Shown: piece after piece, positions 38,658-56,879 of the stretch
Layout: every line of letters begins with the position of its first letter
How positions within the stretch are numbered: the stretch's first letter is position 1
DNA from: a candidate division WOR-3 bacterium
Lineage (GTDB): Bacteria > Hydrothermota > Hydrothermia > LBFQ01
Assembly (NCBI GenBank): GCA_039802605.1
Contig: JBDRWW010000001.1
Location: 192,001 to 256,000, forward strand
Direction: 5' to 3'
Length of the DNA stretch: 64,000 bases
Notes under the pieces: model-generated
Databases searched by the model: none
What the model was told of the DNA's origin: nothing
Seen by the model: the letters and a program-made list of their open reading frames with translations, nothing else
Made by a program: the position numbers and the translations under genes

Positions 38658-40298
38658 TTATTTTATGGGCAAAGGACTGAAAGGAGAAAAGGCTCCTTCT
38701 ACGAAGTATGTTGCCCTGAACACATCGTAGAAAACTGGTGAGTAGTTGATTACTATAAGCAATACCGCTATGCCTATCCAAACCTTCCAATTATCCCATA
38801 TGGGTGAAAGGTTTGCCTCGGGATGATAAGATTCGGCGTAATCAATTTCAACGACTTCAACTTCCCTTTCCTTCTTTCCAAAAACCGTACCGAGGAAGTT
38901 TATCAGGAATATCACGAAGGATATAAACATCAATATACCGCCTATTGCGGCAATAATCATAAATATTTTCTCCTCGGGCTCCATATAAGGTGAAAGTCCG
39001 AGGTTTGTCCTTCTGGGAATGCCGGCCCTTCCCAATTGCATCATACCCCAGGAGAATATTAAAACGCCTATAAGCCAAAGGTATGCCGATAGGGTTCCCA
39101 ACCTTTCGCTAAAAATCCTCTTACCCATGAGTTTGTTTGTTAAATAAAGGGATAATCCGAGGAATGTTAGGAACACGGCCGAACCAAGGGTTAAATGGAA
39201 ATGGCCGGGTATCCAGGATGTGTTATGTACCACTTGGTTCATATTGTAAGAGGCATTGACTATACCGCTTATTCCACCGAATATAAATGCTATCATGCCG
39301 GAAATCATATATGCAAAGAGATAATTACCCCACGGGAGTTTTAACCACCAACCAAACAGGCCGTTTCCACCCCTCTGCCTTGCGGCGTATTCAAGGGATG
39401 CCGCAACGGTAAAGGCTGTTATAAGGGATGGAACCGCAACCATAAATGTAAAGAAGGCGTGCAGGCCCTTCCAAACATTGGTAATGCCTGGATCCGAGTA
39501 TTGGTGATGAACACCTACGGGTACGGAGAATACGATAAACATTATAAAAGCTAGTCTTGCGGCCGTTGCGGAGTATAATTTTCCGCCGATTACCTTTGGA
39601 AGAATGTAATACCATGCGAGGTATGCGGGCAATAGCCAGAAATAAACCAATGGGTGTCCAAACCACCAGAAAAGCGTCCTCGCGAGTTGTGGGTTTATTG
39701 ATTTAACTATGCCCAAGGACCAAGGGATTAGGAAAAACAGAACCTCTATTGCAACACCCAAGGTTGCCAAAAACCACACGGAGTATATGGAAATAACGGC
39801 CACCATGGGACCGGGCGTCCTCTGGCCCGGATTATTCTTCCTCCACCTGAGGAAGGTTAAAATGGTGTTCAGAATTGCTATCCAAGAACCCACTATTAAC
39901 AAAGTGGCGCCTATGTAAAATAGTGGGTGGGCTTGTAGGGGTGGGTAAAAGGTATATAGAACCGTAGCCTTATTGGTTAAAAGCGTGTAAGCCGCCAAAA
40001 CTGCACCCAAAAGCATGACAAAGAAGGATAGATAAACCAGGGTTTTATTCAGCCTCTCCTTCAAACTCGTTTCGGTTATAACATAAAGGAATCCTACTAT
40101 AAAGAATGTTGTAAAGACGACGGCGTTAAGGACACCGTGCATTGTTAAGCCTTGATAGTAAAGGTTCGGAGATATGACATATATTCCAGCCCTTGATAAA
40201 ACTTGGAGGAGTCCGAAAATTACACCTATGGTTATGGATGCTATGGCAACATATATATGCCACATAACGGCGGAACGCAAATATCCTTCCATTTTCAT
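38658..40298 (-). CDS. cbaA: ba3-type (B-family) cytochrome c oxidase subunit I
   Basis: WWFGHPLVY, HHQY, GHFH and PRRT motifs. ATG 40298 follows GGAGG. Confidence 0.95.
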   Translation of the reverse strand: MKMEGYLRSAVMWHIYVAIASITIGVIFGLLQVLSRAGIYVISPNLYYQGLTMHGVLNAVVFTTFFIVGFLYVITETSLKERLNKTLVYLSFFVMLLGAVLAAYTLLTNKATVLYTFYPPLQAHPLFYIGATLLIVGSWIAILNTILTFLRWRKNNPGQRTPGPMVAVISIYSVWFLATLGVAIEVLFFLIPWSLGIVKSINPQLARTLFWWFGHPLVYFWLLPAYLAWYYILPKVIGGKLYSATAARLAFIMFIVFSVPVGVHHQYSDPGITNVWKGLHAFFTFMVAVPSLITAFTVAASLEYAARQRGGNGLFGWWLKLPWGNYLFAYMISGMIAFIFGGISGIVNASYNMNQVVHNTSWIPGHFHLTLGSAVFLTFLGLSLYLTNKLMGKRIFSERLGTLSAYLWLIGVLIFSWGMMQLGRAGIPRRTNLGLSPYMEPEEKIFMIIAAIGGILMFISFVIFLINFLGTVFGKKEREVEVVEIDYAESYHPEANLSPIWDNWKVWIGIAVLLIVINYSPVFYDVFRATYFVEGAFSPFSPLPIK

Positions 40299-40309
40299 AA
40301 CCCACCTCC

Positions 40310-40747
40310 TCATTTAACTATTATTTCCCCATACATCGCCTGATGCCCTATACCGCAGAACTCGTGGCAAACAAACCTATAAACACCCGGCTTGTTAAAC
40401 ACTACCTCGGCTTTATTCACAGCCCCCGGAATGGCCATAAGGTTAACCGCTCTCCCCTCTATCTCAAAACCGTGTTGCACATCGATGGATGTGGTATAAA
40501 TTATAACCTTTGAACCGGCCGGGATTTCTATACTGTTGGGTTCAAATGCCCACATCCTCGCCAATAATTGAACCTGATATTCCTTATCCGATAGTTTTAT
40601 TACTTTACCCTCTTTGAAAGGTGGGAAATCGGTTAAACAGGTTGGGACATCTATGCCCTTTAAGGCCGCAAGGCCAACAACGGCAAAGAAGAACACCAAA
40701 ACCAGCGCAAACGCCAACTTTATGGCTAAACTCTCGAACCTATCCAT
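40310..40747 (-). CDS. cbaB: ba3-type cytochrome c oxidase subunit II
   Basis: CuA motif H...CHEFCGIGHQAM. Confidence 0.95.
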   Translation of the reverse strand: MDRFESLAIKLAFALVLVFFFAVVGLAALKGIDVPTCLTDFPPFKEGKVIKLSDKEYQVQLLARMWAFEPNSIEIPAGSKVIIYTTSIDVQHGFEIEGRAVNLMAIPGAVNKAEVVFNKPGVYRFVCHEFCGIGHQAMYGEIIVK

Positions 40748-40973: not shown

Positions 40974-40981
40974 ATCAAGTG

Positions 40982-42478
40982 ATGAAAATAGAATTAATTT
41001 TATTAGCAATTGCCCTAAATATGGGGATTTTGTACGCGAGCAGTTCCTCTTTTGCTTTCACCTTTGGGAAAAACCAAAACGAGTACTCGTACGGCGTTAT
41101 GGAAACCCCGGACGGGTATGTATTGGTGGGTGAGGCCCTGCTGGGCGGTGGTGGGAAAACGGATGCAACGGCCATAAAGTTAAATCCTATGGGTTCTCTT
41201 ATTTGGTATAAAACTTATGGGAAAAACGATAGGGATGTTATGAGGTTTCCGTTTATATCGGATGATGGAAACTATATACACTTCGGATATACGGATTTTT
41301 CGGGTATTATAACCATTAGGAGACCCACATCCATAAAAACCGACCCCAACGGGAACCTTATATGGACGAAGGCTTATAACATTTCCGGTGAATTCTTAGG
41401 GGTTATAAAACATCCCGGTGAGTTTGTGGCCGTTGGAAGGGATTATCTTGGAAACGGTATTTTAGCGTTTCTAACTTCGGATGCGAATATAAGGGATTTT
41501 AAAACATACTCTTCCGGAAGTTTGTACGGTGTCGCCCCTGACGGTTTTGGGGGATTTATACTTGTTGGGCAAAAGAATAACAACGGTTGGATAATGAGGG
41601 TGGATAATAGCGGTAATGTTTTATGGTCAAGGGAGTATGGGGGAAGTAATGTAGACATATTTAAAGAGGTTGTTGTATTACCACCTTATGCATATGTTGG
41701 GGGTTCTACACAATCCGCCGGTGCGGGCAATTGGGATGTGTGGATTTTAAAGGTTGATATAACGGATGGCGATGTTATATTCTCAAAGACATATGGGGGT
41801 ACAAACGAAGATGAAATTAGGAGTTTGATGCCAAAAGGTTCAAAGATAGGGGTTTTGGCATATACGAGGAGTTGGGGTTTCGGGGGTGCCGAATTCTGGT
41901 TCTTTGAAATAGATTTGAACGGAAATCTTTTAGCCTCATATACCTATGGAGGAAACGGCGACGATTTTCCTCAGATGGGTAAAACAACATCCGATGGCGG
42001 TTATGTTTTGGTTGGATATTCCCAAACGGCGGCATTTACATCCGGAAGGGCATACGACCACTTTATAGTTAAAATAAGTGCAGGCGGTTTTTCCTGTATA
42101 AACAGCGGAAGCCCTATCCCCGTTATAACCGATTTCATCCCCATTATAAGCTACCTTGCGGAATCCCCCACCACCTCAACGCCGGCTTTCAATTGGATAA
42201 GCTTCACATCCACCTCACCCGATTTGGATATAACGCAGGTCTGCTCCCCACTTGGAGGGGATGACGAGTTATCCGTATTTGAGAGGTACAAAGGTATTTA
42301 TTCCATAAATCTATACGGGAATACATTGAGGATAAGCGCTTATGGAAACGAAATCGGTGTATTTACGGTGGATGGTAGGGTTGTTATTAATGCCGTAAAC
42401 GGATTGGAAGCAAAATTGCCCAGAGGGATATACAAGGTTAAGGTGGGAAGGGATATACACACTATTGTTGTGCGATAA
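40982..42478 (+). CDS. Secreted beta-propeller repeat protein with T9SS-like C-terminal domain
   Basis: Signal peptide; repeats of GN.lW.KTYGG...D; CTD VFTVDGR...RGIYKVKV. Confidence 0.8.
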   Translation: MKIELILLAIALNMGILYASSSSFAFTFGKNQNEYSYGVMETPDGYVLVGEALLGGGGKTDATAIKLNPMGSLIWYKTYGKNDRDVMRFPFISDDGNYIHFGYTDFSGIITIRRPTSIKTDPNGNLIWTKAYNISGEFLGVIKHPGEFVAVGRDYLGNGILAFLTSDANIRDFKTYSSGSLYGVAPDGFGGFILVGQKNNNGWIMRVDNSGNVLWSREYGGSNVDIFKEVVVLPPYAYVGGSTQSAGAGNWDVWILKVDITDGDVIFSKTYGGTNEDEIRSLMPKGSKIGVLAYTRSWGFGGAEFWFFEIDLNGNLLASYTYGGNGDDFPQMGKTTSDGGYVLVGYSQTAAFTSGRAYDHFIVKISAGGFSCINSGSPIPVITDFIPIISYLAESPTTSTPAFNWISFTSTSPDLDITQVCSPLGGDDELSVFERYKGIYSINLYGNTLRISAYGNEIGVFTVDGRVVINAVNGLEAKLPRGIYKVKVGRDIHTIVVR

Positions 42479-44174
42479 CCTTATTGAATTCCGGGCATAA
42501 GCGTTTTAAAGTTTTTATATCACCGTCGCATACAATTTCCCCGTTTTCAAGGACCAAAATCCTATCCCCCCAATTAATAGTTGTAGGTTTATGCGCCACG
42601 ACTAAAAGGGTTGTATCGTTTAAGGTCTTTAAAAGGTTATAAACCGCCGATTCGTTTTTTAAATCCAGTGCGCTTGTGGGTTCATCCATTATTAAAAAGG
42701 ATGGATTTCTCAACAAAACCCTCCCTATTGCTATCCTCTGCTTTTCCCCTCCCGAAAGTTTTCCTTTTAGGTTTAAGACTTCTTCACCAAGCCTATCCTT
42801 CAAATGCTCCAAATTAAGGGATGATAATATTTCCAGGGGGTTTTTTCCAAAATTCTCCAAAAGTGTATCCTCAAAAATATACGGTTCCTGTGGGACAAAA
42901 CCTATTAACTCCCTCCATTTCTTTACATCGTAATCGTATAAACTTTTGCCATCTAAAAGGATTTCTCCCTTATAAGGTTTTACAAATCCGGCCAGGAGTT
43001 CAACAAATGTGGTTTTTCCCGAACCGGACTTTCCCACAACCACGATCTTTTCACCCCTTTTAATCCGCAAATGCGGAATCCTTAAAACGGATTTTTGTCC
43101 GTATTTAACCTCAACATTCCTTAATTCCAAAACCTCCCAATTTCTTGGGTCAAGGTTTCCCCAAACCTCCTTTGGTAGATCGTAAATCTCCTTTAACCTT
43201 TTGAGGCTAACCCTTGCGGTTTGCAGGTATGCCAAACTCTGGAAGATAAGTTTCAATGGCCTTATCGTTGAGAGGGAGGCGGCCAGGAATACTATAAAAG
43301 CGTCCGGTGAAACCGTACCGGTTTTGTATATGAAATATCCGGATAGTAGGAGTATTAAAGAGGCGCTAATACCCACAAGGCTTTCCGAGAGTATTGGGGC
43401 CAATGCGGCGGAAAATTCCAGTTTCAAGTATTTTTTGAAAAGGTTTTGTGAATACCTGTTAAACTTTAACTTGAATTTTTCGGCCAAATTTAAGGATTTT
43501 ATAACCTTTATCCCATCAAAGGTGTGCGCCAAAAAGGATGTCGTATCCCCTAAAGCGTTCATGGCTTTTTGCGCCCTCCTCTTTATGGTGCTTGATATAA
43601 TCCAACCCAACAATGCGGATAAGAAGAGGATACCCCAAGCGAAAAAACTCAATATGGGGGCCGATGTTATGGCCAATATTACAAAAATTAGCAGGTTCAA
43701 ACCATCCCCCACGATAGAACCCAAACCATCCCTAACGGCGAGTTTTACATTGTTTATTTCTACAGTTAAACGACCTATAATATCGCCAGACCGCAGGTTT
43801 TTAACGCTTTCAAAATCCGCATCGATTAAAGAGGAAAAAACCCCATTCCTTAAATCCCTACCTATGACCTCTTGTAGGAATAGTATGCCGAACTTTTTAG
43901 CGGAATTAACAATTAGTTTTGCCAAAAATATAAAAGCCACAAATAGGGAAAGGTTTCTTATGTTTTGAAAGGGATCCCCGCTTATTAAGAAGTTCTCTAT
44001 AAATCCCTTTAAAGGCTTCAAGGCGGGTATCAGGTTTATTTCCCCCTCTGACGATAGTAGAACCCTGAGAATTATCGGCAGTACGGATATTGATATACCC
44101 TCAAGTCCCGATGAAATTAAGCTAAAAAGGGAATATACGGCAAAAAGTGATATGTAAATGGGTTTAACCCTCAT
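42462..44174 (-). CDS. ABC transporter, fused permease/ATPase (MsbA-like)
   Basis: N-terminal TMD plus GKSGSGKT, LSGGEKQR and DEPTSALD motifs. Confidence 0.9.
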   Translation of the reverse strand: MRVKPIYISLFAVYSLFSLISSGLEGISISVLPIILRVLLSSEGEINLIPALKPLKGFIENFLISGDPFQNIRNLSLFVAFIFLAKLIVNSAKKFGILFLQEVIGRDLRNGVFSSLIDADFESVKNLRSGDIIGRLTVEINNVKLAVRDGLGSIVGDGLNLLIFVILAITSAPILSFFAWGILFLSALLGWIISSTIKRRAQKAMNALGDTTSFLAHTFDGIKVIKSLNLAEKFKLKFNRYSQNLFKKYLKLEFSAALAPILSESLVGISASLILLLSGYFIYKTGTVSPDAFIVFLAASLSTIRPLKLIFQSLAYLQTARVSLKRLKEIYDLPKEVWGNLDPRNWEVLELRNVEVKYGQKSVLRIPHLRIKRGEKIVVVGKSGSGKTTFVELLAGFVKPYKGEILLDGKSLYDYDVKKWRELIGFVPQEPYIFEDTLLENFGKNPLEILSSLNLEHLKDRLGEEVLNLKGKLSGGEKQRIAIGRVLLRNPSFLIMDEPTSALDLKNESAVYNLLKTLNDTTLLVVAHKPTTINWGDRILVLENGEIVCDGDIKTLKRLCPEFNKVIAQQ

Positions 44175-44515
44175 TCCGAATAAGATGCCCCGAATTCATC
44201 CGTTTCCCAAACTATAACCTCTTCAACATTGGGAAACTTTTCCTTTACCCTTTTGAACACCCACTCCGCCAACCTCTCCGAGGTTGAATTTCCCGGTATT
44301 AAATCGTTTATGTTAATCCGATGGGGTAAAATTTTCATTAAAAAATCCTTTACCTCCAAAAAATCAACCACGTATTCCTCTCCGTTTAAATCGCCACCTA
44401 TAACGACCTCAACCCTGTAATTGTGCCCGTGAAGGGGTTCGGCCTTTCCCTTATAACTTTTAAGATAATGCGCCCCACAAAAGGTATGCCTTACCCTAAC
44501 CTTAAACTTTCCCAT
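44171..44515 (-). CDS. 6-pyruvoyl-tetrahydropterin synthase family protein (ExxHGH, PTPS-III-like)
   Basis: GAH...AEPLHGHNY...VDF...TSE...VWET. Confidence 0.85.
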   Translation of the reverse strand: MGKFKVRVRHTFCGAHYLKSYKGKAEPLHGHNYRVEVVIGGDLNGEEYVVDFLEVKDFLMKILPHRININDLIPGNSTSERLAEWVFKRVKEKFPNVEEVIVWETDEFGASYSE

Positions 44516-44527
44516 TTATAAAAAAAG

Positions 44528-44601
44528 CGCCCCAGGAGGGAATCGAACCCCCGACCTGCGGCTTAGGAAGCCGCCGCTCTATCCTACTGAGCTACTGGGG
44601 C
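44528..44601 (-). tRNA. tRNA-Arg (CCT), CCA not encoded
   Basis: GCCCCAG/CTGGGGC acceptor stem, anticodon loop TTCCTAA, GGTTCGATTCC T-arm. Confidence 0.95.
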
Positions 44602-44671
44602 GAGACGGATATTATAAGGGTGTTTTTATTTCTACAACAAAAAAGCCAAACCCCCTTACAATACACCGCTT

Positions 44672-47600
44672 ATGAACGCCGAAAGGGTAAAATGGATAAT
44701 CTTTATTTTGGTGTTCCTTTTCGTATCCTTTGTATATTTTAAGACAACCGCTCCGACCACTGCATTTTGGGATGTGGGTGAATTCCTAGCAGCGGCGCAT
44801 ATCCTCGGAGTCCCACACCCGCCCGGCACGCCGTTTTATGTGATCTTGGCAAAGTTTTTTGACCTATTACCGATTCCTGCGGCGGAACTATACTCTTTGA
44901 TAAACGGGGGAATAAAGGCAAACCCAGCCGTTTTAAAAATGACACTTATACCCATACTCATGGGCGGTTTAAACGCCGCTTTGGTATACCTCTTGGCCTA
45001 TGAGGTTTTAAAGATTGTGGATAAAGAAAGTGCCTTTCCCGATTGGGTTTTACATGTTTTTGCAGCCGCGGGGGCATTAACCATGGCCTTTGCTAGGATA
45101 GTATGGTTTGATTCCATAGAGGTGGAAACATATGCCCCCGGCGCATTTTTTGGAATATTGGCCCTGTATTTTGGCCTTTTATGGTATAAAAACAAGGACG
45201 ACAACAACTCTTTGAAATGGTTAATACTAGGGGTTTATTCAATAATGTTGGGTACGGGCATTCACCTAACGGTTCTTTTTGCCCTACCCCCTTTATTCTT
45301 TTTGGTTTGGGTTGCAAAACCAAAGCTCTTGTGGGATAGAATAGCCATAGGTCTTTTTGGAGCCATGTTTTCCTTATTCTTTCTGATGTTTTTAACTTAT
45401 GAACAAAACGGCCCGGTTTTGTTGTTTGGGATTTCATATCTGTTGATGTTTTGGTATATGGTGTTGGATAAAAAACTCTCAAAACTAACCGATCCTCTGA
45501 CTTTATTGTTTTTACTCGGAGCATTTCTTGCCGGTTTTGGAATCGTTCAGAAAAACTCCCAGTTTTTAACATTGGGTACATTTTTATCCGTTGCTTCAAT
45601 GTTTGTAGCGGGAAGGATGTGGGAGGATTGGAAGGGTTGGGTGTTTATGGTGATTTTGGTGGGGTTTTCAATAGAGTTTTGGATAATCGCGAGGGCTTAT
45701 TACCTCCACATGCATCCCCTTGATGCCAGGATAAACGAGGGGGATCCATATACTTGGCAAGCCTTTATGGATGTCCTTTTGAGAAAACAATACGAACCGG
45801 CAAATATATTACCCAGAAGGATAGAACTAATTGACCAGATAAAGGTTTTCTTAATGTGGTTTGGATGGCAGTTTAACGCATCAACATACAATGTTTTAGA
45901 CCCGCAGAAAATCGCAAATATGACCCTATTTGACCATATAGGGCCTTTTGGAATATTCGCCATAGCATTGGGGATTTTGGGCATGTGGGAACACTTTGTT
46001 AAAGACAACAAAGATAGGGGTACGTTTGTCCTCGTGGGTATTGCAACACTGCTGGCTGGTATAGGTTTCTTCATAGCATTTAACTTTAAAGATTCTCCAA
46101 CGCATCCCGTAAACCCCTTTAACGCCCAATTTGGAAATGTTGAGGTTAGAAACAGGGATTATTTCTACCATCCGTTTTACCAACTTTGGGGTTTGTATTT
46201 AGCAATCGGTATGTTTTACCTCGGGAAGATTTTAACGGATTACTTAAAAAACTACCTTTATGCGGCCTTGTCCCTTACGGTTTTGGGTGTATTTATGGTA
46301 TATCTTCAAATAACCCAACACGCAAAACTCAACATCAGAACCGCAAACTATATACCCGAAGATTTCGCGCATAACATTCTGGTTTCCGCAAAGTCGGATA
46401 AAGGGGTATTTATGACAAACGGGGATAACGATACATTTCCCGTATGGTTTGTACAAGAAGTATTAAAGAGGAAATGGGGCCTTATAAACGCAAACCTATC
46501 CCTGCTCAATACGAATTGGTACATAAGGGAATTGAAACACTGGGGTGCCCCCATAAGTTTTTCGGATGAGGACATATATAGGCTTCCCCCTATAATTGAA
46601 GGCGGCGGTGAAAGGGGCTTCCTATACCTAAGGGATTTGGCCATAAGGGATATGATAGCAACGGCCGTTGGATATAAAACGGATAATTATCGCGAGATAT
46701 TGGGTATGGATGGAAAACCCATAAGGGTACCCGCCATATACTTGGCGGATAACTTAACCTTTGCCAAGGAGGTTTTTGAGGGTAAGGAATTCTCAATGCC
46801 TATATACTTCTCCTTGACCTCAGACCCGGAAGTCTTTGCCGGTTGGGAACAATATATGGTACTTGAAGGAATGCTTTTAAGACTAACGGGGCAAAGGCAG
46901 CAAAAAACCATAGGTTTGGGCGCAGTAGATGCAGAATGGACGGATAAACTCATAACTGGGGGTTCGGATAACCCCGTTGAATATGTAAAGAAGGCATCTT
47001 TGAACTACTACGAGGAACCGAGGTTGGACAGGTGGTATTATAGAAGCCTATTTGACGATAGGGTTCCGAAGAACGAGGATCATCTAAGGCTTTTGAGGAA
47101 TTACGCATCCGCAACTTTAACGCTCGCCGCGCACTATACTTCCGAAGGGAATTACGACCGGGCGGAAAAGTTGTTTGACCTTGGAGAAATGTTTGTGAAA
47201 AAATCGGTTGAAGATCTTCAAAGGGATATTGAAAGCGATCCGCAAATTTTTGCAATAAGGTTGTCAAGGGCTTATATAAGTATGAGGTTGGGGAAATTCA
47301 AAGAGGCGGAAAGGGTTTTGAGGAAGTATTCTAAAAACCTTCCCGATGGCGAATATAAATGGAGATTGGCTTTAATAAAGCTGTACGAGGGGAAAACCGA
47401 TAGCGCCGCCGAACTCGCAAAGGTACTTATAACCTATGTACCCGAAGAAGACCCCGTTTGGGGAATATCCCTTGATACGCTTTACACCCTTCTGCCCGCG
47501 GACAGCTTGATAAACATATCTTATAAGGCATTTGAGGGGGGAAAACTCGACCTATCCCTAAAACTCCTTGAAAAATCCAATACCACGCAAGCGGTTAAAA

Positions 47601-47821
47601 ACTGGGCGGGTATGTTAATAAACGCCGTTAAATACCAAGATGAAAATATTTTCAAGTCTTTGGCCTCCTACGCGCCCTTTGATACAACGAAGGCCGGGGC
47701 TTGGAAATCCGAATTGGATAGGTTATACGGTTCTTTGAGTAAGTATTTCTCACGGCTTGGGGATACGACAACGGCAAATAGGTTTGAAGAATACAGAAAA
47801 ATTTACGCCGAACAGAAATGA
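44672..47821 (+). CDS. DUF2723 / TMEM260-like GT-C membrane protein with C-terminal TPR-like region
   Basis: FWDVGEF...LGVPHPPGTPFY, EVETY, RNRDYFY and TNGDNDTFP motifs. Confidence 0.85.
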   Translation: MNAERVKWIIFILVFLFVSFVYFKTTAPTTAFWDVGEFLAAAHILGVPHPPGTPFYVILAKFFDLLPIPAAELYSLINGGIKANPAVLKMTLIPILMGGLNAALVYLLAYEVLKIVDKESAFPDWVLHVFAAAGALTMAFARIVWFDSIEVETYAPGAFFGILALYFGLLWYKNKDDNNSLKWLILGVYSIMLGTGIHLTVLFALPPLFFLVWVAKPKLLWDRIAIGLFGAMFSLFFLMFLTYEQNGPVLLFGISYLLMFWYMVLDKKLSKLTDPLTLLFLLGAFLAGFGIVQKNSQFLTLGTFLSVASMFVAGRMWEDWKGWVFMVILVGFSIEFWIIARAYYLHMHPLDARINEGDPYTWQAFMDVLLRKQYEPANILPRRIELIDQIKVFLMWFGWQFNASTYNVLDPQKIANMTLFDHIGPFGIFAIALGILGMWEHFVKDNKDRGTFVLVGIATLLAGIGFFIAFNFKDSPTHPVNPFNAQFGNVEVRNRDYFYHPFYQLWGLYLAIGMFYLGKILTDYLKNYLYAALSLTVLGVFMVYLQITQHAKLNIRTANYIPEDFAHNILVSAKSDKGVFMTNGDNDTFPVWFVQEVLKRKWGLINANLSLLNTNWYIRELKHWGAPISFSDEDIYRLPPIIEGGGERGFLYLRDLAIRDMIATAVGYKTDNYREILGMDGKPIRVPAIYLADNLTFAKEVFEGKEFSMPIYFSLTSDPEVFAGWEQYMVLEGMLLRLTGQRQQKTIGLGAVDAEWTDKLITGGSDNPVEYVKKASLNYYEEPRLDRWYYRSLFDDRVPKNEDHLRLLRNYASATLTLAAHYTSEGNYDRAEKLFDLGEMFVKKSVEDLQRDIESDPQIFAIRLSRAYISMRLGKFKEAERVLRKYSKNLPDGEYKWRLALIKLYEGKTDSAAELAKVLITYVPEEDPVWGISLDTLYTLLPADSLINISYKAFEGGKLDLSLKLLEKSNTTQAVKNWAGMLINAVKYQDENIFKSLASYAPFDTTKAGAWKSELDRLYGSLSKYFSRLGDTTTANRFEEYRKIYAEQK

Positions 47822-49053
47822 TACCCCTTGACCCCAGAAACATATTTTGTTTTGGGTTTTGTTTTTGGGTACCGGATTCTTCGCAGTTTTCACTAAACCT
47901 TTACAGTAGGAATAATCCTTATGCCGGTTTTGTTGAATTCACCCCGCAAATATCTTTAAAAATTGGGAATTTCGGGGTTTTGGTTGGGATGAGCGCCTTC
48001 AACGGTAGGTCAAAGCTCATAAATAAGGAGGATTGGAACCCTTATAGGGAGTATTCCCTTGAAATAGTTGATTGGAAGGGGGAACCCGTTATAACAAAAT
48101 ATCCATTATTTGAGGCCTTGCAATACAGGGCTTTTGGGTGGCTTGACTACGGTTTCATAAAAGTTAAAATGGGGAGGGATTATTTAAAGGTTAGCCACTC
48201 CTTAAGGTATCCCCTTTTGTTTTCCGGATGGGGCTATCCCTTGGACTGGTTTTATTTGGTGGAAGGGGGATATAGGGGTTTAAGGGGATATGCGGGTTTT
48301 GCGAGGGTTCCATCAAATTTTTATGAAAACAAGAGGTTGGCCTTTCAAAGGCTTGAATGGGAATTCTGGAAGGTGAAACTAGGTATAACGGAAATGGTGG
48401 TTTATACGAGGGATGATACCTGGAAATACGCAAACCCATTCGTGCTGTATTATGTGGTTCAGAGGAGGGAATCGGATAACGATGACAACCTATTTTTACA
48501 CCTTGATGCGACCATTGATTTGGGCCTTATGGAATTTTATGGGGAATTTATGGGGGATGACCCCTCGGTCTTTCATGGGGAAGGGCAGGCACCCCTTATG
48601 GGTTTTACGGGTGGGTTTAGAATTGATGGGAATTACGGGTTTTTCAACATGGAAGGTTCGGCGGTTTTACCTTTCACATACGCCCATTTCACATATAAAA
48701 ACACATTTGACGCTTTGGGATTACCCTTGGCGACATATCTAGGGCAGGATTACACATCCCTCTACTCAATCTATTCTTTTAAGGGGTTTTTTGCGGACTT
48801 TGAATACATATTGCACGGCAATACACCCTTTGGATTACCCTTCGAGGAATCCGGCTTACCACCTACGGGTGAATTCCCAAGAAAACCCAGAAGTGAGTGG
48901 TTTAGGTTTGGATTGGGTATTCGCGATGTGAATTTTGATTTATCAATAGCATATTTCGGATTATCGGGAAGGCTGGGATTTGATGTAATAAACGGAAAGT
49001 TTTACCCGGCGTGGTCTTTTGTTTGGTTTTCTTCTCTTAAATGGGGAATATGA
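47818..49053 (+). CDS. Capsule assembly Wzi-like outer-membrane protein
   Basis: GRD, RLE, E.VVY, NPF, DN and YGEFMGDD pattern. Confidence 0.6.
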   Translation: MIPLDPRNIFCFGFCFWVPDSSQFSLNLYSRNNPYAGFVEFTPQISLKIGNFGVLVGMSAFNGRSKLINKEDWNPYREYSLEIVDWKGEPVITKYPLFEALQYRAFGWLDYGFIKVKMGRDYLKVSHSLRYPLLFSGWGYPLDWFYLVEGGYRGLRGYAGFARVPSNFYENKRLAFQRLEWEFWKVKLGITEMVVYTRDDTWKYANPFVLYYVVQRRESDNDDNLFLHLDATIDLGLMEFYGEFMGDDPSVFHGEGQAPLMGFTGGFRIDGNYGFFNMEGSAVLPFTYAHFTYKNTFDALGLPLATYLGQDYTSLYSIYSFKGFFADFEYILHGNTPFGLPFEESGLPPTGEFPRKPRSEWFRFGLGIRDVNFDLSIAYFGLSGRLGFDVINGKFYPAWSFVWFSSLKWGI

Positions 49054-50078
49054 GGTTTGACGATTCAAGGGTTAGAAAGGCTTTTTACCCTTTTAGTAAG
49101 TTGAAGGGGGTGGAGGATTTAAGGGTTGGGATTTTTACATTTGGTGAAAGGATAAAGGGGGTTTTGGGGGATGTTGATTATGTTCTCTCCCCCAACTTTG
49201 TGCCCTTTGAAGGATTAAAGGGTAATCCGCCGGTTATATTGGTGAAAGGCGAAGTGGTGGGGTATAGGATGGGACGGGTAAGGGGTTGGGAAGATGCATA
49301 TAATCTGGCCCATAAAGGCCTTGGCGGGGAATTAAATGGAATATATTTCGGACACTTTTGGGAGATCCCTTTAAAAATTGAAAGCGTTTTGGAGTTTGAT
49401 CTAAAACTTCTCAAACTTGAAGATTTCTATAAATTGGGCGAACTGTACATTCATAAAAGTTCAAGGGTTTCCTTAAAAGGAGACTTTAACGCTTGGGGGG
49501 TTGTGGATATGGGTGCGGTTATAAAGCCCTTTGTGGTTTTGGAGGGTGGGGTTTATATAGGGGAAAACAGCCTTGTAAAGCCTTTTACATATGTTTCATC
49601 TTCCGTTATAGGCCCGGTTTGTAAGGTTGCGGGCGAAATATCGCACACCGTTTTTGAGGGCTTTTCAAACAAGCAGCACGGAGGTTTTATAGGACATTCC
49701 TATGTTGGGAGTTGGGTTAATATAGGTGCGGGAACAGAGGTTAGCAATTTAAAAAACACATACGGTACGGTAAAGGTTTATTCTTATGAAAAGGAAGGAT
49801 TGGTTGATACGGGAGAGATGTTTTTGGGTTTGTTTGCGGGGGACCACTCAAAAATAGGGATAAACACCACAATTTCAACCGGGACGGTTTTGGGTATATT
49901 TGCAAACATAACGGCAAACGATTCCCCAACGGAGAAATTTATACCGGACTTCTATTGGACGGGTGGGGGGAAGATGGAATTAAATAAAGCCGTTGAGATC
50001 GCAAAAAGGGTTATGAACAGGAGGGGAATAAGCCCAAGCGAAGACTACATAAATAGAATAAAGGAGTGTTATGAATAA
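49050..50078 (+). CDS. Putative sugar-nucleotidyltransferase / GlmU-like left-handed beta-helix protein
   Basis: LRVGIFT, NKQHGGFIGHSYVGSWVNIGAGT and SNLKNTYG motifs. Confidence 0.8.
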   Translation: MRFDDSRVRKAFYPFSKLKGVEDLRVGIFTFGERIKGVLGDVDYVLSPNFVPFEGLKGNPPVILVKGEVVGYRMGRVRGWEDAYNLAHKGLGGELNGIYFGHFWEIPLKIESVLEFDLKLLKLEDFYKLGELYIHKSSRVSLKGDFNAWGVVDMGAVIKPFVVLEGGVYIGENSLVKPFTYVSSSVIGPVCKVAGEISHTVFEGFSNKQHGGFIGHSYVGSWVNIGAGTEVSNLKNTYGTVKVYSYEKEGLVDTGEMFLGLFAGDHSKIGINTTISTGTVLGIFANITANDSPTEKFIPDFYWTGGGKMELNKAVEIAKRVMNRRGISPSEDYINRIKECYE

Positions 50079-51234
50079 ACCCGTATGCGTTATGAAGTTT
50101 GGGGGGTCATCCGTTGCAAATGTGGAAAGGATTTTAAATGTTGCGAGGATAATTAGGGATAAGACCGAACAATATATGCCCATAGTTGTGGTATCAGCAA
50201 TGGGGAAAACTACGGATAATTTAATAGAAATGGCCTATACGGTTAATGAAAACCCCCCTCCGAGGGAATTGGATATGCTTCTAACCGCCGGGGAAAGGAT
50301 ATCTATGGCCTTACTTTCTATGGCACTACACAAATTTGGTTTAAAAGCAAGGTCTTTTACGGGTTCTCAGGTGGGTATAATAACGGAAAACAGGTTTAAC
50401 AGGGCAAGGGTTCTGGAAGTTAAACTTTTAAGGGTTAAGGAGAGTTTGGAAGAGGGCGTAATACCAGTTATAGCGGGTTTTCAGGGTGTTAGTACGAACA
50501 AGGAGATAACGACTTTGGGAAGGGGTGGGTCGGATTTAACGGCCGTGGCCTTGGCCATATCCCTCGGAAACGTTAAGTGTGAGATATATACGGATGTTGA
50601 TGGGGTTTATTCCCTTGATCCTAGGAAATATCCAAATGCAAAGAGGTACGATAAAATTTCATTTGAAATCCTTGCCGAAATGTCATCCGCTGGGGCAAAG
50701 GTTATGCACAGCAGGGCCGTAAGTTTGGCCGCAAAGTACAATCTACCCTTCTTTATAATGTCAAGTTTTAACCCTAAGAAAGGGGGAACTATGGTTGATA
50801 AGTTTTTAGAGGGACCCAATGTAAAGGGGATAACCACAAAGGATGTGGTGATTTTTGATGTTGAGGGTTTTGAAGATGGCTATATACTACAAAGGGTTTT
50901 AAAGGATGTGGATATTTTAAACTTATCGCAAGATTCATCGGGTAGGCATTTGGTGTTTCTGTTGGATATAGGCGAAAGGGATAAAATGTTAAGGATATTA
51001 TCGGAAGAAAGGGTGAAATTTGTTATGAGGGAAAACTTACAAATGATAAGCATTATAGGATGGGGAATAGGAAGTTCGTATGAAATTTTGGAAGGTATAT
51101 TTGATAGTATAAAAGGAGAACATGTTTTTTCCCTGAATATTACCGAAATGCGGGTTTCGGTAGTTGTGGAAAAGGATAAAGGGGAAAAGGTGGTGGAAAA
51201 CTTGGCGGAAAGGTTTAACCTATTGGAGAAATGA
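50071..51234 (+). CDS. lysC: Aspartate kinase
   Basis: KFGGSSV, VVSAMG, TTLGRGGSD and TDVDGV motifs. Confidence 0.93.
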   Translation: MNKPVCVMKFGGSSVANVERILNVARIIRDKTEQYMPIVVVSAMGKTTDNLIEMAYTVNENPPPRELDMLLTAGERISMALLSMALHKFGLKARSFTGSQVGIITENRFNRARVLEVKLLRVKESLEEGVIPVIAGFQGVSTNKEITTLGRGGSDLTAVALAISLGNVKCEIYTDVDGVYSLDPRKYPNAKRYDKISFEILAEMSSAGAKVMHSRAVSLAAKYNLPFFIMSSFNPKKGGTMVDKFLEGPNVKGITTKDVVIFDVEGFEDGYILQRVLKDVDILNLSQDSSGRHLVFLLDIGERDKMLRILSEERVKFVMRENLQMISIIGWGIGSSYEILEGIFDSIKGEHVFSLNITEMRVSVVVEKDKGEKVVENLAERFNLLEK

Positions 51235-52454
51235 GGTTATTACCTTATATAGCGGCGGTTGTTCTGGGTGTGTCCTTTGTTGCTCTTAAAGTTTATAAGG
51301 AAACAAAGATGGGGAGAAGCGTTTATGCACCCCTTTCGGACCTGAAAACCCTGTTAAACACGCCAATTGTGGGAACAATCGAAGACTCGTATTCTTACCT
51401 ATTATCTGCATATGGGTATTACAAGAACTTTGTGCCTGTAATAGATTGGGAAAGGGATAGGTATTTCGTATCTTTCAGGTTCTTATCTTCCATAGTATTC
51501 GTTCCTTTTATGTGGATATTTAAGGGTTATTTCCCAATAGCGTATATATTATTCTTTTCGTTGGCGGTTATGCTCTCTTATGCCCATCTATTACAAACCC
51601 TAAAAATACACCCGATAATATCAACCATAACTTTGGTTGCATTATCCCCTTTAACATTTTACCACATACCCCGTTTGATGTTGGAACCCCCAGCGGTTTT
51701 ATTTCTAATCTGGTTTTTGATATCATTTTTAAAGCGTAGGTATATCTTATCCTTTGTTTTCCTGTTTATCGCGGGAATAATTAGGGCCGAGATTTCGGTT
51801 TTGTGTCTTATTTTTGGAATTTACGCTTTTGCGAAAACACGCAAGTTGTCCTTTTCGCTTTCGGTAATACCGGTCATTTTACAAGTTTCCATTAATTATT
51901 TCCTCGGGGATCAGAGCAACTTTTATTTTTGGACCTATAGGGGATATTTGGAAAACTTTAAGTATAATGAGTATTCATCGGATAATGTGAAGGCATGCAT
52001 TAATAAAAAACTGGGATTTGTTCCGGAAAAGCCGATGATATATACACACCCGTATTTAAGGGTTTCAACCGAATGTTGGAAAGAAGTTGTGTCATCCGAA
52101 ATGGATTTTAAGAAGGGTTTCGGTTATGCTTTTAAACAAATATTAAAAAACGCCTTTGATGTTGTATTTTTCCCGGTAAGTAAGTTTTCATCGTTCTTTA
52201 AATGGCCTATTTTATCCTTTTACCTTTTTTATGGTATATTGGTGTTTATTTCTGTTTTTGGATTTTGGTTTTGGGGTTCAAGACTTCTTATCGTATTCTA
52301 CGCCATCCTTATAACCATTTACTCGCTTTACAATCCCTTCGGATTGTTTGATTCTTCGAGGTTCAAACAGATGCTTATACCCTTTGAGGTGGTATTCATC
52401 TCCTCATTACTATCAATACATCGTTTTCAAGTTTTAAAACCTCGTCAATTTTAA
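51231..52454 (+). CDS. Multi-pass membrane protein, possibly GT-C-fold glycosyltransferase
   Basis: Many TM helices; DS..Y in the first loop, MLE and IRAE motifs, and a late RF motif typical of GT-C-like proteins. Confidence 0.5.
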   Translation: MRLLPYIAAVVLGVSFVALKVYKETKMGRSVYAPLSDLKTLLNTPIVGTIEDSYSYLLSAYGYYKNFVPVIDWERDRYFVSFRFLSSIVFVPFMWIFKGYFPIAYILFFSLAVMLSYAHLLQTLKIHPIISTITLVALSPLTFYHIPRLMLEPPAVLFLIWFLISFLKRRYILSFVFLFIAGIIRAEISVLCLIFGIYAFAKTRKLSFSLSVIPVILQVSINYFLGDQSNFYFWTYRGYLENFKYNEYSSDNVKACINKKLGFVPEKPMIYTHPYLRVSTECWKEVVSSEMDFKKGFGYAFKQILKNAFDVVFFPVSKFSSFFKWPILSFYLFYGILVFISVFGFWFWGSRLLIVFYAILITIYSLYNPFGLFDSSRFKQMLIPFEVVFISSLLSIHRFQVLKPRQF

Positions 52455-53992: not shown

Positions 53993-55237
53993 TTATAAAG
54001 CGGGTTGTTTTGTAAGGTTTAAAACCCTTCTCCTCCAAAAGGCGGATTTTCTTGCGGAATTTTTTATCCTCTTCTTTTCAAGTAGAGGTCTCGTAGCATC
54101 CGTGGATTCGGGATGCCTCCTGTAATAGTATAAAACCTTATGTATCCTTCCAATCCTATAAAGTTCGCTTATCTTTAAAACCACATCGTAATCTTCGGCA
54201 AAATTCGGAAAATTAACCTCATCAAATCCCCCAATCCTTTCCAGAACTTCCCTCTTATAACTCCTAACGGCCCCGGCACCCTCTACCCTTAAAATGTTGT
54301 TTATAGAAAACTCCAAATGCTTAACCGTTCCCATTTCCCCTATCGGATTACCCTTTTCATCAACCACTTGGTAATATGATACGGCCAATCCAACAGGGTA
54401 TTCCTTATGGTATTCGTAAACGGTTCTTAAAGCATCCTTTGAGTAAAAATCGTCGGAATCCAACTGCGAAATTATCCAACCCTTTGAATTTTTTATACCC
54501 ATGTTTAAGCAACCCGCCAAACTCTCCCCATAAACCTCAACTAACTTTATTCTACCATCCCCTTGTGAAAACCTCTTAACGATTTCCCTCGTATTATCCG
54601 TTGAGCCGTTATCCACAACTATGCACTCCCAGTGTGGGAAATCGTTTTCTAAAATCGATTCCAAGGCCTTACCTATGAACCTTTCCCTATTCCTTACTGG
54701 GATTATAACGGATATATAGGGCTTATGCGGCTTTTCTTTTAAAGGCAGGTCAAGGGGTTTGTTTAAATATGCCCCAATTTTAACGAGGAAATCCTTAAAG
54801 ATCCCCTCCAAGGCAATCTCGTCCTCTTGGGAATATGTTAGGTATTTAAAAGCCTCGGAGTAAAGTTTCCCAAACCCCTCAACGCTAAACCTTTCAGATA
54901 GAACCCTATCGAGGACCAAATGGTTTTTACCTATAATATATAGTTGCAACCTCGCGTAATATTCCCAGAATTTTCCGTATTTCCAAGCCTTTATACCCTC
55001 CAAAAAATCCCAATGGTACAACCTCAAAGGTCCCAACTCCGCCCTTTCGGTAAAATCCTGAAAATCCCCAACATCAAAAACCTTACCCTTATAAATGTAT
55101 TTACCAACAACTATTGGATGTTTTGGGATATCCTTTAAGTTTTCGTATATTACGGCGGCGTTATCCTCCAAAACCGCCAGCACATCCCCAACCCTATTGG
55201 GTAAAGGCTCCCCAGATTTTAAAAACTGTACTTTCAT
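53993..55237 (-). CDS. Glycosyltransferase family 2
   Basis: SVIIPV, VVDNGSTD, LDSDD and EDYD motifs. Confidence 0.88.
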   Translation of the reverse strand: MKVQFLKSGEPLPNRVGDVLAVLEDNAAVIYENLKDIPKHPIVVGKYIYKGKVFDVGDFQDFTERAELGPLRLYHWDFLEGIKAWKYGKFWEYYARLQLYIIGKNHLVLDRVLSERFSVEGFGKLYSEAFKYLTYSQEDEIALEGIFKDFLVKIGAYLNKPLDLPLKEKPHKPYISVIIPVRNRERFIGKALESILENDFPHWECIVVDNGSTDNTREIVKRFSQGDGRIKLVEVYGESLAGCLNMGIKNSKGWIISQLDSDDFYSKDALRTVYEYHKEYPVGLAVSYYQVVDEKGNPIGEMGTVKHLEFSINNILRVEGAGAVRSYKREVLERIGGFDEVNFPNFAEDYDVVLKISELYRIGRIHKVLYYYRRHPESTDATRPLLEKKRIKNSARKSAFWRRRVLNLTKQPAL

Positions 55238-56160
55238 CCACCCCCAAGGGATTGGACATATTTGTTTCTCAAATCCGTAGCAACCGTCCTTATTGCATTT
55301 GAAAGGTTTGAACCCACCTGTAGGTTTTCCACCCTCTGACTTAGAGGGTTGCCATTAACCTCAACGGGTTTTCCGGTTTTTACATCATAAATGGTTATTG
55401 TAAAACTAACTATGTTGTTTTTTGAAGAAACCGAACCGAAGACGAATATGTCGGAACCCACGGTTTGCGCTATGCTTAAAACATCCCTTTCGTTTATCGT
55501 CCTTTTCGTTAATCCCTTTGAATTTATATACATCTTTGCCGCATTTTTATCATAAACCCTAAACCTCGTGCTCTCGTTAAAAACATCGTATATGTAATCC
55601 ATCAATGTATCGCCTAAGCCATAGGATGCCGCCTGATCATCCTCTTCCCTAAAAGGAAAAACGATAACCTTCTTTTGCAAAAACTCAACTCCCCTATAAG
55701 CCTTGTTTAATTCGTCAAGGACCAAAGGGGTTATATCATGCCTTGAATCGTACCAAACAGCATTTGATACATCAAGGACAACCTCATAACCCATACCCTT
55801 TGCTATCCTCTCGGTTGTTTCCCTAACTTTCTGGATATAAGGGGTCATTACCTCTTTGCTTTTGGCCTCAACCTGCTTGATTATAAAGTTTGAAATACTA
55901 TCAAGTTGCCTTTTGTATCCTTCTATTTCCCGTTGTCTTAAAATCCTCTCCGCATCCGTTAATATAGGCCACTGCTTTTCCAATGCGGATTGTAGGGAAT
56001 CCAACTTTCTCTTTACGGAATCCCTTTTAACTTCAAGGGTTGCCTTATACCTTATAACCTGCTCCCTCGCATCCTTTAAATCTATGTATTCGTTGTAAAT
56101 CTTTTCCATATTCACAAGGGCCACCTTGGAGGATTGGGACAAAATCATCAAAAGAACCAT
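55234..56160 (-). CDS. OmpH/Skp chaperone fused to a CsgG/TolB-N-like domain (start approximate)
   Basis: KVALVNMEKI...GYEVVLD...DIT..VL (Skp), followed by VIVFPF...VGSDIFVFGSV...IYDVKTG. Confidence 0.7.
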   Translation of the reverse strand: MVLLMILSQSSKVALVNMEKIYNEYIDLKDAREQVIRYKATLEVKRDSVKRKLDSLQSALEKQWPILTDAERILRQREIEGYKRQLDSISNFIIKQVEAKSKEVMTPYIQKVRETTERIAKGMGYEVVLDVSNAVWYDSRHDITPLVLDELNKAYRGVEFLQKKVIVFPFREEDDQAASYGLGDTLMDYIYDVFNESTRFRVYDKNAAKMYINSKGLTKRTINERDVLSIAQTVGSDIFVFGSVSSKNNIVSFTITIYDVKTGKPVEVNGNPLSQRVENLQVGSNLSNAIRTVATDLRNKYVQSLGGG

Positions 56161-56879
56161 GACAATCTGGAAATCCTCCCGTGCCAAATTTTGAGGTATA
56201 CCCTTATGGAATCACGGGAATGATCACCGTAATGAATGCTATCAACAACAACCTTACCGAGGTAATCGCCCTCATCGAAATTCCCGGAGACACCGAAGTC
56301 AAGCCATAAGGCCAAGGTATCGTAAGGGGTTATATTAATGTATTTTTCGTATCCCGAAGGCGGTATTGGATAATCGGTATTGTAGGGTTTAAACAGGGTT
56401 TCCCTATGACCAAACTTCGCCGTATCCCGTGAAGGGGAGATCAATCTCAAACTATCAAGGACAAACAGAAGATATGCAAAGTTATCCCCATCTTCCGGAT
56501 TGCAAGGGGATATGCTGTCTTTAAAACACACACCGGAAAACTGTCCAGAACCATAAGAATAAAGGCTTATATGCGAATAATAGGGTGAAACATTTATAGT
56601 GTCGCTCATTCTAATATCCGATGGGGCGTATGCGAATACCAATAATTTTTTATATGGTGTGGTAATTAAAGCAAATGTATCCTTTGTTGTAAGTATCCAG
56701 CCCAAGGATGTGGAATCTACCCCATAAACCGTAAAACTATCCGCACCTTCCAAGTAATACCAATATATGTATAGGGATTTGCCATCCCTTCCGCCAATAA
56801 CTTTTGATATTCTCGGATTTGAAGGCAAAGTTCCGCCTGCACAGGATATAAACAGGGTTAATAATGCCAACCGTTTCAT
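56148..56879 (-). CDS. Hypothetical lipoprotein
   Basis: MKRLALLTLFISC lipobox. Confidence 0.7.
   Translation of the reverse strand: MKRLALLTLFISCAGGTLPSNPRISKVIGGRDGKSLYIYWYYLEGADSFTVYGVDSTSLGWILTTKDTFALITTPYKKLLVFAYAPSDIRMSDTINVSPYYSHISLYSYGSGQFSGVCFKDSISPCNPEDGDNFAYLLFVLDSLRLISPSRDTAKFGHRETLFKPYNTDYPIPPSGYEKYINITPYDTLALWLDFGVSGNFDEGDYLGKVVVDSIHYGDHSRDSIRVYLKIWHGRISRLSWFF

Follow-up and report, generated by a model that had tools for sequence, protein, structure and literature searches.

The DNA analysed here – hereafter the window – is a stretch of 64,000 nucleotides from a candidate division WOR-3 bacterium (G000:C1:192001-256000; host genome G000, 1.65 Mb, 90% complete) that encodes a large membrane protein of the TMEM260/DUF2723 family. 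We propose, with a probability of roughly 0.7 and on the basis of sequence comparison and structure modelling, that this protein is the periplasm-facing transferase that initiates general O-glycosylation of the Bacteroidota type, being directed to exported proteins by the three-residue sequon D-[ST]-[AILVMT]. The odds are roughly even as to whether the unit transferred would be mannose alone or a short core glycan. The gene, single-copy in the host genome, is the following:

44672..47821 (+), TMEM260/DUF2723 (GT117-like) glycosyltransferase (GT) of the GT-C class, 1049 aa, PF11028; the main finding

A bacterial relative of TMEM260

By every clear test of sequence and predicted fold, the protein is a member of the TMEM260 family. 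It matches PF11028 with 100.1 bits (cut-off 24.2, E 1.6e-28), and human TMEM260 (9rql) is found at E 2e-4 with the single sequence and at 2e-35 with a profile; in the profile search it is the best match among solved structures once TPR proteins are set aside, and the match covers human residues 29-216 and 261-479. The family alignment holds 82 sequences of the 120 hits listed, query included. The enzyme's named relatives, at 28-40% identity, come from WOR-3/Hydrothermales, and two at 57-60% identity carry the source label Thermotogae.

The AlphaFold2 model built from this alignment (predicted local distance difference test score, pLDDT, 92.6; predicted TM-score 0.88) contains the GT-C fold that an earlier note on this DNA had expected, and that note's view of the DUF2723 protein as a TMEM260-like GT-C enzyme is borne out by hidden Markov model and fold comparison alike. 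The best fold matches are all GT-C enzymes – STT3 (8agc; Z 22.3, root-mean-square deviation 4.2, 412 residues aligned), PglB (Z 22.0) and Pmt (Z 21.5) – and the next unrelated class follows at Z 10. The layout comprises a transmembrane core, a Rossmann-like periplasmic domain with a GDND motif (D585) and a TPR region, with strands from residue 578 and helical repeats from about residue 800 in the model; the TPR matches in Pfam are weak.

The catalytic set is kept as well. HMMER aligns human D52, H67, R355 and D441 with D34, H49, R495 and D585, whereas human R264 and Y267 were paired by eye with R371 and Y374 through an R-x-x-Y-G motif that HMMER did not align there. All six counterparts are invariant in 82/82 aligned sequences, and the enzyme's motifs recur in the orthologue of Prevotella nigrescens. 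In the cryo-electron microscopy study of TMEM260 (bioRxiv 10.64898/2026.03.17.711096), D441 is the catalytic base; the mutations D52A, R264A, Y267A and D441A and mutation of H67 abolish activity, and R355A leaves ~20%.

The putative acceptor groove combines likeness with difference. Human V352, which lines the +1 pocket, aligns to V492, in keeping with a hydrophobic +1 residue common to both enzymes. Human E466, in contact with residue -1, is aligned with an invariant S610, and an invariant R493 stands at the position of human V353; both S610 and R493 are thus candidates that may read the Asp of the sequon.

Proposed mechanism and a candidate donor synthase

On the cytoplasmic side, a DPM1-like GT2 enzyme would make polyprenyl-phosphate-mannose, and the lipid-linked donor – mannose alone, or a short core rooted in mannose – might then be flipped, possibly by a PF03706 protein. 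By analogy with the human enzyme, the GT-C core would bind this donor through D34, H49, R371, Y374 and R495, D585 would deprotonate the Ser or Thr within a D-(S/T)-hydrophobic motif of an exported protein, and the sugar would be transferred with inversion. More speculatively, the residues R493, N586, D587, S610 and N613, invariant in the bacterial proteins and located at positions of the TMEM260 acceptor groove, may recognise the Asp.

The candidate donor synthase is encoded far from the window:

G000:C1:72748-73461 (-), outside the window, DPM1/Ppm1-like polyprenol-phosphate mannose synthase, E 9e-35 to the dolichol-phosphate mannose synthase 5mlz

All panel genomes (21/21) have a close orthologue of it (45-62% identity), as do 68/71 Fibrobacterota and 81/81 Bacteroidota. 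Of the 66 Fibrobacterota that carry both genes, 32 have it downstream of the PF11028 gene, on the same strand and within 7.1 kb. Left out of this count are six PF11028 matches that are weak and partial and a second DPM1-like match; many of these 32 genomes are likely to be closely related. In the essential gene list of Porphyromonas gingivalis, PGN_1026 carries K00721, which we take to stand for dolichol-phosphate mannosyltransferase. PGN_0777 was considered as the DPM1 orthologue and rejected, being the orthologue of GtfE.

Other partners emerged from 78 loci around relatives in other lineages, searched up to 10 kb on each side at E 1e-4; these loci were found with GDND/RDYF patterns, which makes them long-type by construction, and the counts include the query locus. 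One GT4 orthologue is present in 11/78 loci, an S-adenosylmethionine-dependent methyltransferase in 7/78, and a downstream PF03706 protein and a DPM1-like GT2 in 3/78 each. PF03706 proteins are too widespread (5/5 genomes and 10/14 controls) to be singled out as the flippase. One locus, L089:8920-16647, has the order DUF2723 – GT4 – PF03706 – GtrB-like GT2 – (one gene) – DPM1-like, parts of which recur in L059 and L066; this run is a candidate core-glycan locus.

Sequon enrichment in the host genome

Sequon counts are given here as observed/expected, with expectations from shuffles within each protein. For the host genome they rest on 1611 open reading frames of our own calling sorted by a hydropathy rule, with 255 ambiguous proteins left uncounted. 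The 160 predicted exported proteins hold 399 sequons against 122.9 +/- 10.6 expected (3.25-fold), at least one of them in 115/160; membrane proteins hold 335/206.9 and cytoplasmic ones 605/467.2. In the exported class, control motifs with Glu (90/107.4) or Asn (75/101.2) in place of Asp, or with the order reversed (140/121.7), show no comparable excess, and the Glu, Asn, permuted and reversed controls all gave ratios of 0.74-1.15. The N-x-S/T motif is not enriched in the same proteins (257/275, ratio 0.93). A second classifier gave 364/114.9, and the excess stays when the ten richest proteins are removed (314/111.5).

The excess in proteins sorted as cytoplasmic (1.29-1.57) is largely due to mis-sorted exported proteins: the 15 listed all have the look of exported proteins, and without the 40 richest of 854 the count is 365/405, which that selection biases downward. 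The sequons that the earlier note had seen throughout the window are thus above chance across the genome, specific for Asp and biased to exported proteins.

The enzyme itself carries sequons. The five that had been noted in its C-terminal region are all real and lie within residues 910-1033 (DSA910, DTL935, DSL944, DTT1004, DTT1031), against expectations of 1.41 for residues 555-1049 and 0.55 for 900-1049, windows that were picked after the motifs had been seen. Across the 82 relatives, the part from the GDND motif onward has 201 sequons against 82.7 expected, with at least one in 77/82, and the part before it 28 against 57.1; the Glu control for the periplasmic part of the family stands at 65 against 72.5.

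Two sequon-rich proteins of the window, at 28768-31176 (-) (25 against 3.9 expected) and 56148-56879 (-) (8 against 1.0), would make good reporter substrates.

Distribution of the family

PF11028 was found in 150/151 WOR-3 genomes (122/122 of high quality), 300/301 Bacteroidota, 69/71 Fibrobacterota and 90/91 Marinisomatota, genomes near 1 Mb included; in the single Marinisomatota miss, G472, the gene is cut at a contig end. G425 and G100, which are fragmented or 81% complete, are uninformative. Among 14 control genomes it was found in Bacteroides thetaiotaomicron only. Phylum names are those of the database records and are imperfect guides to lineage.

Among the five families of membrane sugar transferases tested, no other is present as consistently. 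A panel of 12 genomes gave PF11028 in 11, Wzy_C in 9, PMT (PF02366, not found in the host genome) in 4 and STT3 (PF02516) in 0; PMT_2 exceeded its cut-off in 2/5 genomes. Wzy_C, with three matches in the host genome, is also present in 9/14 unrelated controls. Shorter PF11028 paralogues of about 530-800 aa accompany the family in some genomes. Five plasmid records, all from Bacteroidota, carry a relative of the enzyme, and none was found in the phage collection.

There are two irregularities. L032 is labelled Cloacimonadota, yet shows the same match coordinates as G016 of the host phylum. In a Marinisomatota genome of 0.97 Mb, the PF11028 frame (G525:C1:865532-866035) measures 279 aa, compared with 961-986 aa in genomes of similar size, and is either a split gene or a sequencing error.

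Orthologues in species with a mapped glycoproteome

The Prevotella intermedia orthologue, BWX39_09045, is glycosylated at a DTL site. In P. gingivalis, the orthologue PGN_0192/PG2144 is recorded as a DUF2723 protein of the inner membrane with one glycosite (PMC8729774) and is among 463 putative essential genes, where it is not marked as polar (PMC3547785). Another paper codes it only to a study of in vivo fitness in abscess and epithelial models (PMC11436796). Being essential in one transposon sequencing (Tn-seq) library and tied to in vivo fitness in another may be the reason why knockout work missed the gene.

According to a 2025 review, the flippase of the core glycan, the oligosaccharyltransferase and the ligase of the Bacteroidota system are undiscovered, and homologues of eukaryotic O-mannosylation enzymes are recommended as targets of a search (PMC12871550). 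Our search, which did not extend to subscription papers or bioRxiv supplements, found no publication that names the TMEM260/DUF2723 family as the initiating enzyme of Bacteroidota. The description of human TMEM260 refers to 'distant homologs in bacteria' by mention only (PMC10214176), and the structure preprint does not contain the word stem 'bacteri' (bioRxiv 10.64898/2026.03.17.711096).

Weighing the proposed role

The earlier note had suggested examining whether DUF2723 and sequon enrichment occur together across phyla, and they do so in part. Exported-protein counts were made for 17 carriers besides the host, from 100-300 kb each and with a threshold of P<0.01. The gene is present in G000 and in all nine significantly enriched carriers; eight of the 17 carriers are unenriched, and one genome without the gene shows a weak excess. 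Samples of 100 kb gave 75/23.3 and 46/21.9 in WOR-3, 86/36.6 and 44/13.9 in Fibrobacterota, 30/16.5, 41/25.2 and 6/7.3 in Bacteroidota, 37/21.3, 46/26.5, 11/10.7, 19/13.4 and 22/15.4 in Marinisomatota, 26/21.8 in Eisenbacteria, 14/15.6 in Latescibacterota and 65/35.5 in Zixibacteria, whose 'cytoplasmic' class also reaches 1.77. A Gemmatimonadota sample of 300 kb (G152) gave 44/46.1. For G257 and G160 the figures come from no more than 100 kb. Controls that lack the gene gave 32/32.8 in 32 proteins (Escherichia coli, 200 kb; Thermus and Deinococcus plasmids, 50 kb each), a thin control.

A number of observations weigh against the proposed role. The first is that only nine of the 17 carriers are enriched; in one Bacteroidota genome (G186, 300 kb) the motif is even depleted, at 35/53.2, with the motifs of the gene intact; the depletion could mean that sequons are avoided where the enzyme is active. 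Enrichment is no prerequisite for activity: P. nigrescens DNA, which has the orthologue, shows 9/9.1 in 11 proteins, and P. intermedia has 443 mapped glycosites (PMC10897501); the review likewise states that not all species are enriched in the motif (PMC12871550).

The second is that G591, a Fibrobacterota genome in one 1.6 Mb contig that is apparently closed (its GC skew falls into two about equal halves), keeps an excess without the gene: exported proteins give 53/36.1 and 'cytoplasmic' ones 176/132.1, with 11/356 proteins at P<0.01 against none for the Glu control and 0/168 in E. coli. Searches with PF11028, the enzyme profile and a Fibrobacterota orthologue found no match there, and the syntenic place holds other genes. 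This excess is lower than in gene-bearing Fibrobacterota (130/50.5, P 4e-4). The DPM1-like synthase is kept in G591, and Wzy_C, PMT, PMT_2 and STT3 were not found in it, for which reason we prefer to see its sequons as relics decaying after gene loss; an enzyme that escaped notice or an assembly gap are the alternatives. A further genome, G598, has no PF11028 match and shows 15/3.3 in six proteins; its assembly is fragmented, and a C-terminal-like match lies where one contig ends.

The remaining points are of other kinds. TMEM260 (9rql/9rqm/9rqn) is not among the fold-search matches listed. PGN_0192 falls outside the 281 essential genes common to two Tn-seq libraries (PMC11436796), and the glycans of Tannerella depart from the mannose core (PMC12871550). 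A GT9 gene lies directly downstream in six Ignavibacteria-type loci, a hint at a link to lipopolysaccharide (LPS). Finally, a family with any core function in these phyla would be nearly universal as well, and related genomes do not count as independent.

Several of these points would also suit a TMEM260-like transferase that serves a few proteins or a non-protein acceptor, such as the LPS core or an envelope glycolipid, with a WaaL/PglL-like or unseen enzyme acting on the sequon. Besides the GT9 neighbours and the eight unenriched carriers, it could appeal to the narrow acceptor range of human TMEM260 (IPT domains; PMC10214176) and to the Wzy_C proteins of the host. We nonetheless consider it unlikely: Wzy_C is missing from 3/12 panel genomes and common in unrelated controls, enrichment is not needed for an active system, as the Prevotella data illustrate, and the family's own periplasmic part is enriched in sequons.

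A later step is quite improbable. The enzyme would then act in the same pathway as the proposed ligase or extender, joining a second block of glycan to the protein-bound core, and another protein would recognise the sequon. The review lists both an oligosaccharyltransferase and a ligase as undiscovered (PMC12871550), the nearest folds are oligosaccharyltransferases as much as mannosyltransferases (STT3/PglB at Z 22 and Pmt at 21.5 being tied), and G591 keeps sequons without the gene. Yet the base that stands beside the acceptor Thr in TMEM260 is conserved, the gene shows linkage to that of a DPM1-like synthase, and the other membrane transferase families tested are less constant, all of them being missing from G591 too.

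Comparison with known systems

Human TMEM260 (CAZy GT117; PDB 9rql/9rqm/9rqn), a protein O-mannosyltransferase, shares with the bacterial enzyme PF11028, the succession of core, Rossmann-like domain and TPR region, and the counterparts of D52, H67, R355 and D441, with those of R264 and Y267 matched by eye. At 707 aa it is smaller than the 1049 aa of the bacterial protein, which has extra helices and a longer TPR region. The acceptor grooves differ in S610 for E466, N586/D587 for L442/P443 and R493 for V353; the proposed acceptor would be a three-residue sequon on many proteins instead of a long IPT-domain signature, and the donor a bacterial polyprenol instead of dolichol, with the glycan extended.

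The general O-glycosylation of Bacteroidota (D-S/T-A/I/L/V/M/T) has the same motif, Asp specificity and export bias as seen in the host, and orthologues of the enzyme are present in P. gingivalis, P. intermedia, P. nigrescens and B. thetaiotaomicron. Hallmarks of that system are a Man-Rha-GlcA core glycan on these sites and a metG-wzx locus (LFG) for the outer glycan. The host here is a WOR-3 bacterium, and the only enriched phyla named in the text of the review are Bacteroidota and Fibrobacterota (PMC12871550). STT3/PglB/AglB and fungal Pmt have the GT-C fold in common with the enzyme (Z 20-22, deviation ~4 A over ~360-420 residues) but only 9-13% identity to it, and N-x-S/T is unenriched in the host.

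A broader and more tentative proposal, to which we give somewhat less than an even chance, is that an ancestral O-glycosylation system, common to Bacteroidota, Fibrobacterota, Marinisomatota, WOR-3 and related phyla, is initiated by enzymes of the long, GDND-type TMEM260 clade. Along with the universal DPM1-like synthase, the linked GT4, the methyltransferase and the PF03706 protein, this clade might constitute the missing 'core glycan' machinery, using a polyprenyl monophosphate donor instead of a pyrophosphate one, and animal TMEM260 might be a narrowed descendant or a sister.

Strong sequon enrichment now extends to WOR-3, and model species have named candidate genes (PGN_0192/PG2144, BWX39_09045) with a predicted catalytic base and donor synthase, so that the long-open question of the missing initiating enzyme becomes directly testable. 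If the proposal is true, a sequon-directed bacterial O-mannosyl- or oligosaccharyltransferase would be useful for glyco-engineering, and bacteria would offer a model for TMEM260.

The genes around the enzyme

The enzyme gene lies in the following surroundings:

42462..44174 (-), ABC exporter half-transporter of the MsbA superfamily, ABC_membrane and ABC_tran; TIGR02203 below cut-off
44171..44515 (-), queD, QueD/PTPS family, between the ABC gene and DUF2723; PF01242, E 5e-24
44527..44601 (-), tRNA-Arg(CCT), between queD and DUF2723; ARAGORN
47818..49053 (+), Wzi/RemB-like predicted outer-membrane protein, by structural likeness in the Atlas; adjoins DUF2723 within the genus only
49041..50078 (+), alternative GlmU-like sugar nucleotidyltransferase/acetyltransferase, TIGR03991
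50071..51234 (+), lysC, aspartate kinase, housekeeping; NF005154, TIGR00657
51231..52454 (+), second multi-pass protein, PMT_2/ArnT-like GT-C by resemblance of Atlas features
53993..55237 (-), GT2, an open reading frame beyond ribD and osmC

All the open reading frames named before were found where they had been placed, and the five plus-strand genes from 44672 to 52454 do overlap end to start, by 4, 13, 8 and 4 nt. Scans for promoters (16 against 18.3) and terminators (14 against 11.9) were both at chance level, so that co-transcription of the five genes rests on the overlaps alone. The ABC gene is on the opposite strand, as had been said, though not directly divergent, queD and tRNA-Arg lying in between; likewise the GT2 at 53993 exists, on the other strand and past ribD and osmC.

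The GlmU-like assignment stands, at 253.9 bits against the TIGR03991 cut-off of 225.3, in a family that is itself a hypothetical equivalog; lysC passes NF005154 at 378.6 (cut-off 376) and TIGR00657 as well. The protein at 47818-49053 has no Pfam or NCBIfam match and resembles in the Atlas a Wzi cluster (TM-score 0.82; PF14052 in 25% of members) and RemB-like clusters (0.81). That at 51231-52454, also without a Pfam or NCBIfam match, comes close to PMT_2 clusters by features (0.98), with TM-scores of 0.57-0.71 in structure rows below the naming bar and a single-sequence model of our own (pLDDT 45) too poor for fold assignment; as it is present in only 7/41 genomes of the class, it is not a general transferase. 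The ABC protein shares the half-transporter layout of MsbA, and the host genome has lpxB; its TIGR02203 score of 231.6-232.7 is far under the equivalog cut-off of 602, which none of the genome's three MsbA-like genes reaches, and is the weakest of the three (the others score 355.8 and 331.1).

The description of 42462-52454 as a glycosylation locus is not supported. None of the 78 loci of other lineages contains the Wzi-like, GlmU-like or second GT-C gene, lysC or queD; 30 further WOR-3 loci were too short for this test. The five-gene order is whole in G142 and broken in G146 between GlmU and lysC, leaving DUF2723, Wzi and GlmU together and lysC and the second GT-C separate; in three genomes of the sister genus, the genes are scattered across different contigs. 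The neighbours are a recent, genus-level arrangement outside the O-glycosylation system. A dedicated locus, with the GlmU-like enzyme supplying a sugar nucleotide, the ABC protein as flippase, two GT-C enzymes and an outer-membrane component, is therefore largely refuted by synteny and very improbable: the overlaps, the link of four of the five genes to envelope glycans and the order kept in G142 and partly in G146 speak for it, but the neighbours are missing from every locus elsewhere, lysC and the second GT-C part company within the genus, the latter is rare in the class, queD and the tRNA cut off the ABC gene, and the partners conserved elsewhere sit far away in G000.

Other features of the window

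Secreted-looking proteins at 40979-42478 and 57313-58854 have similar short C-terminal domains, which to us resemble type IX secretion signals; both are sequon-poor (0 against 1.6 and 1 against 1.8 expected). At 38658-40747 (-), two genes presumably encode subunits I and II of a ba3-type heme-copper oxidase, judging by motifs, and at 55234-56187 (-) an OmpH/Skp domain is fused to a TolB-N/DUF2380-like domain. A strongly conserved -10-like element, TTATAA(T)ATC, stands at a near-constant short distance before tRNA genes, in the window at 44527-44620 and at ~20 other places in the genome.

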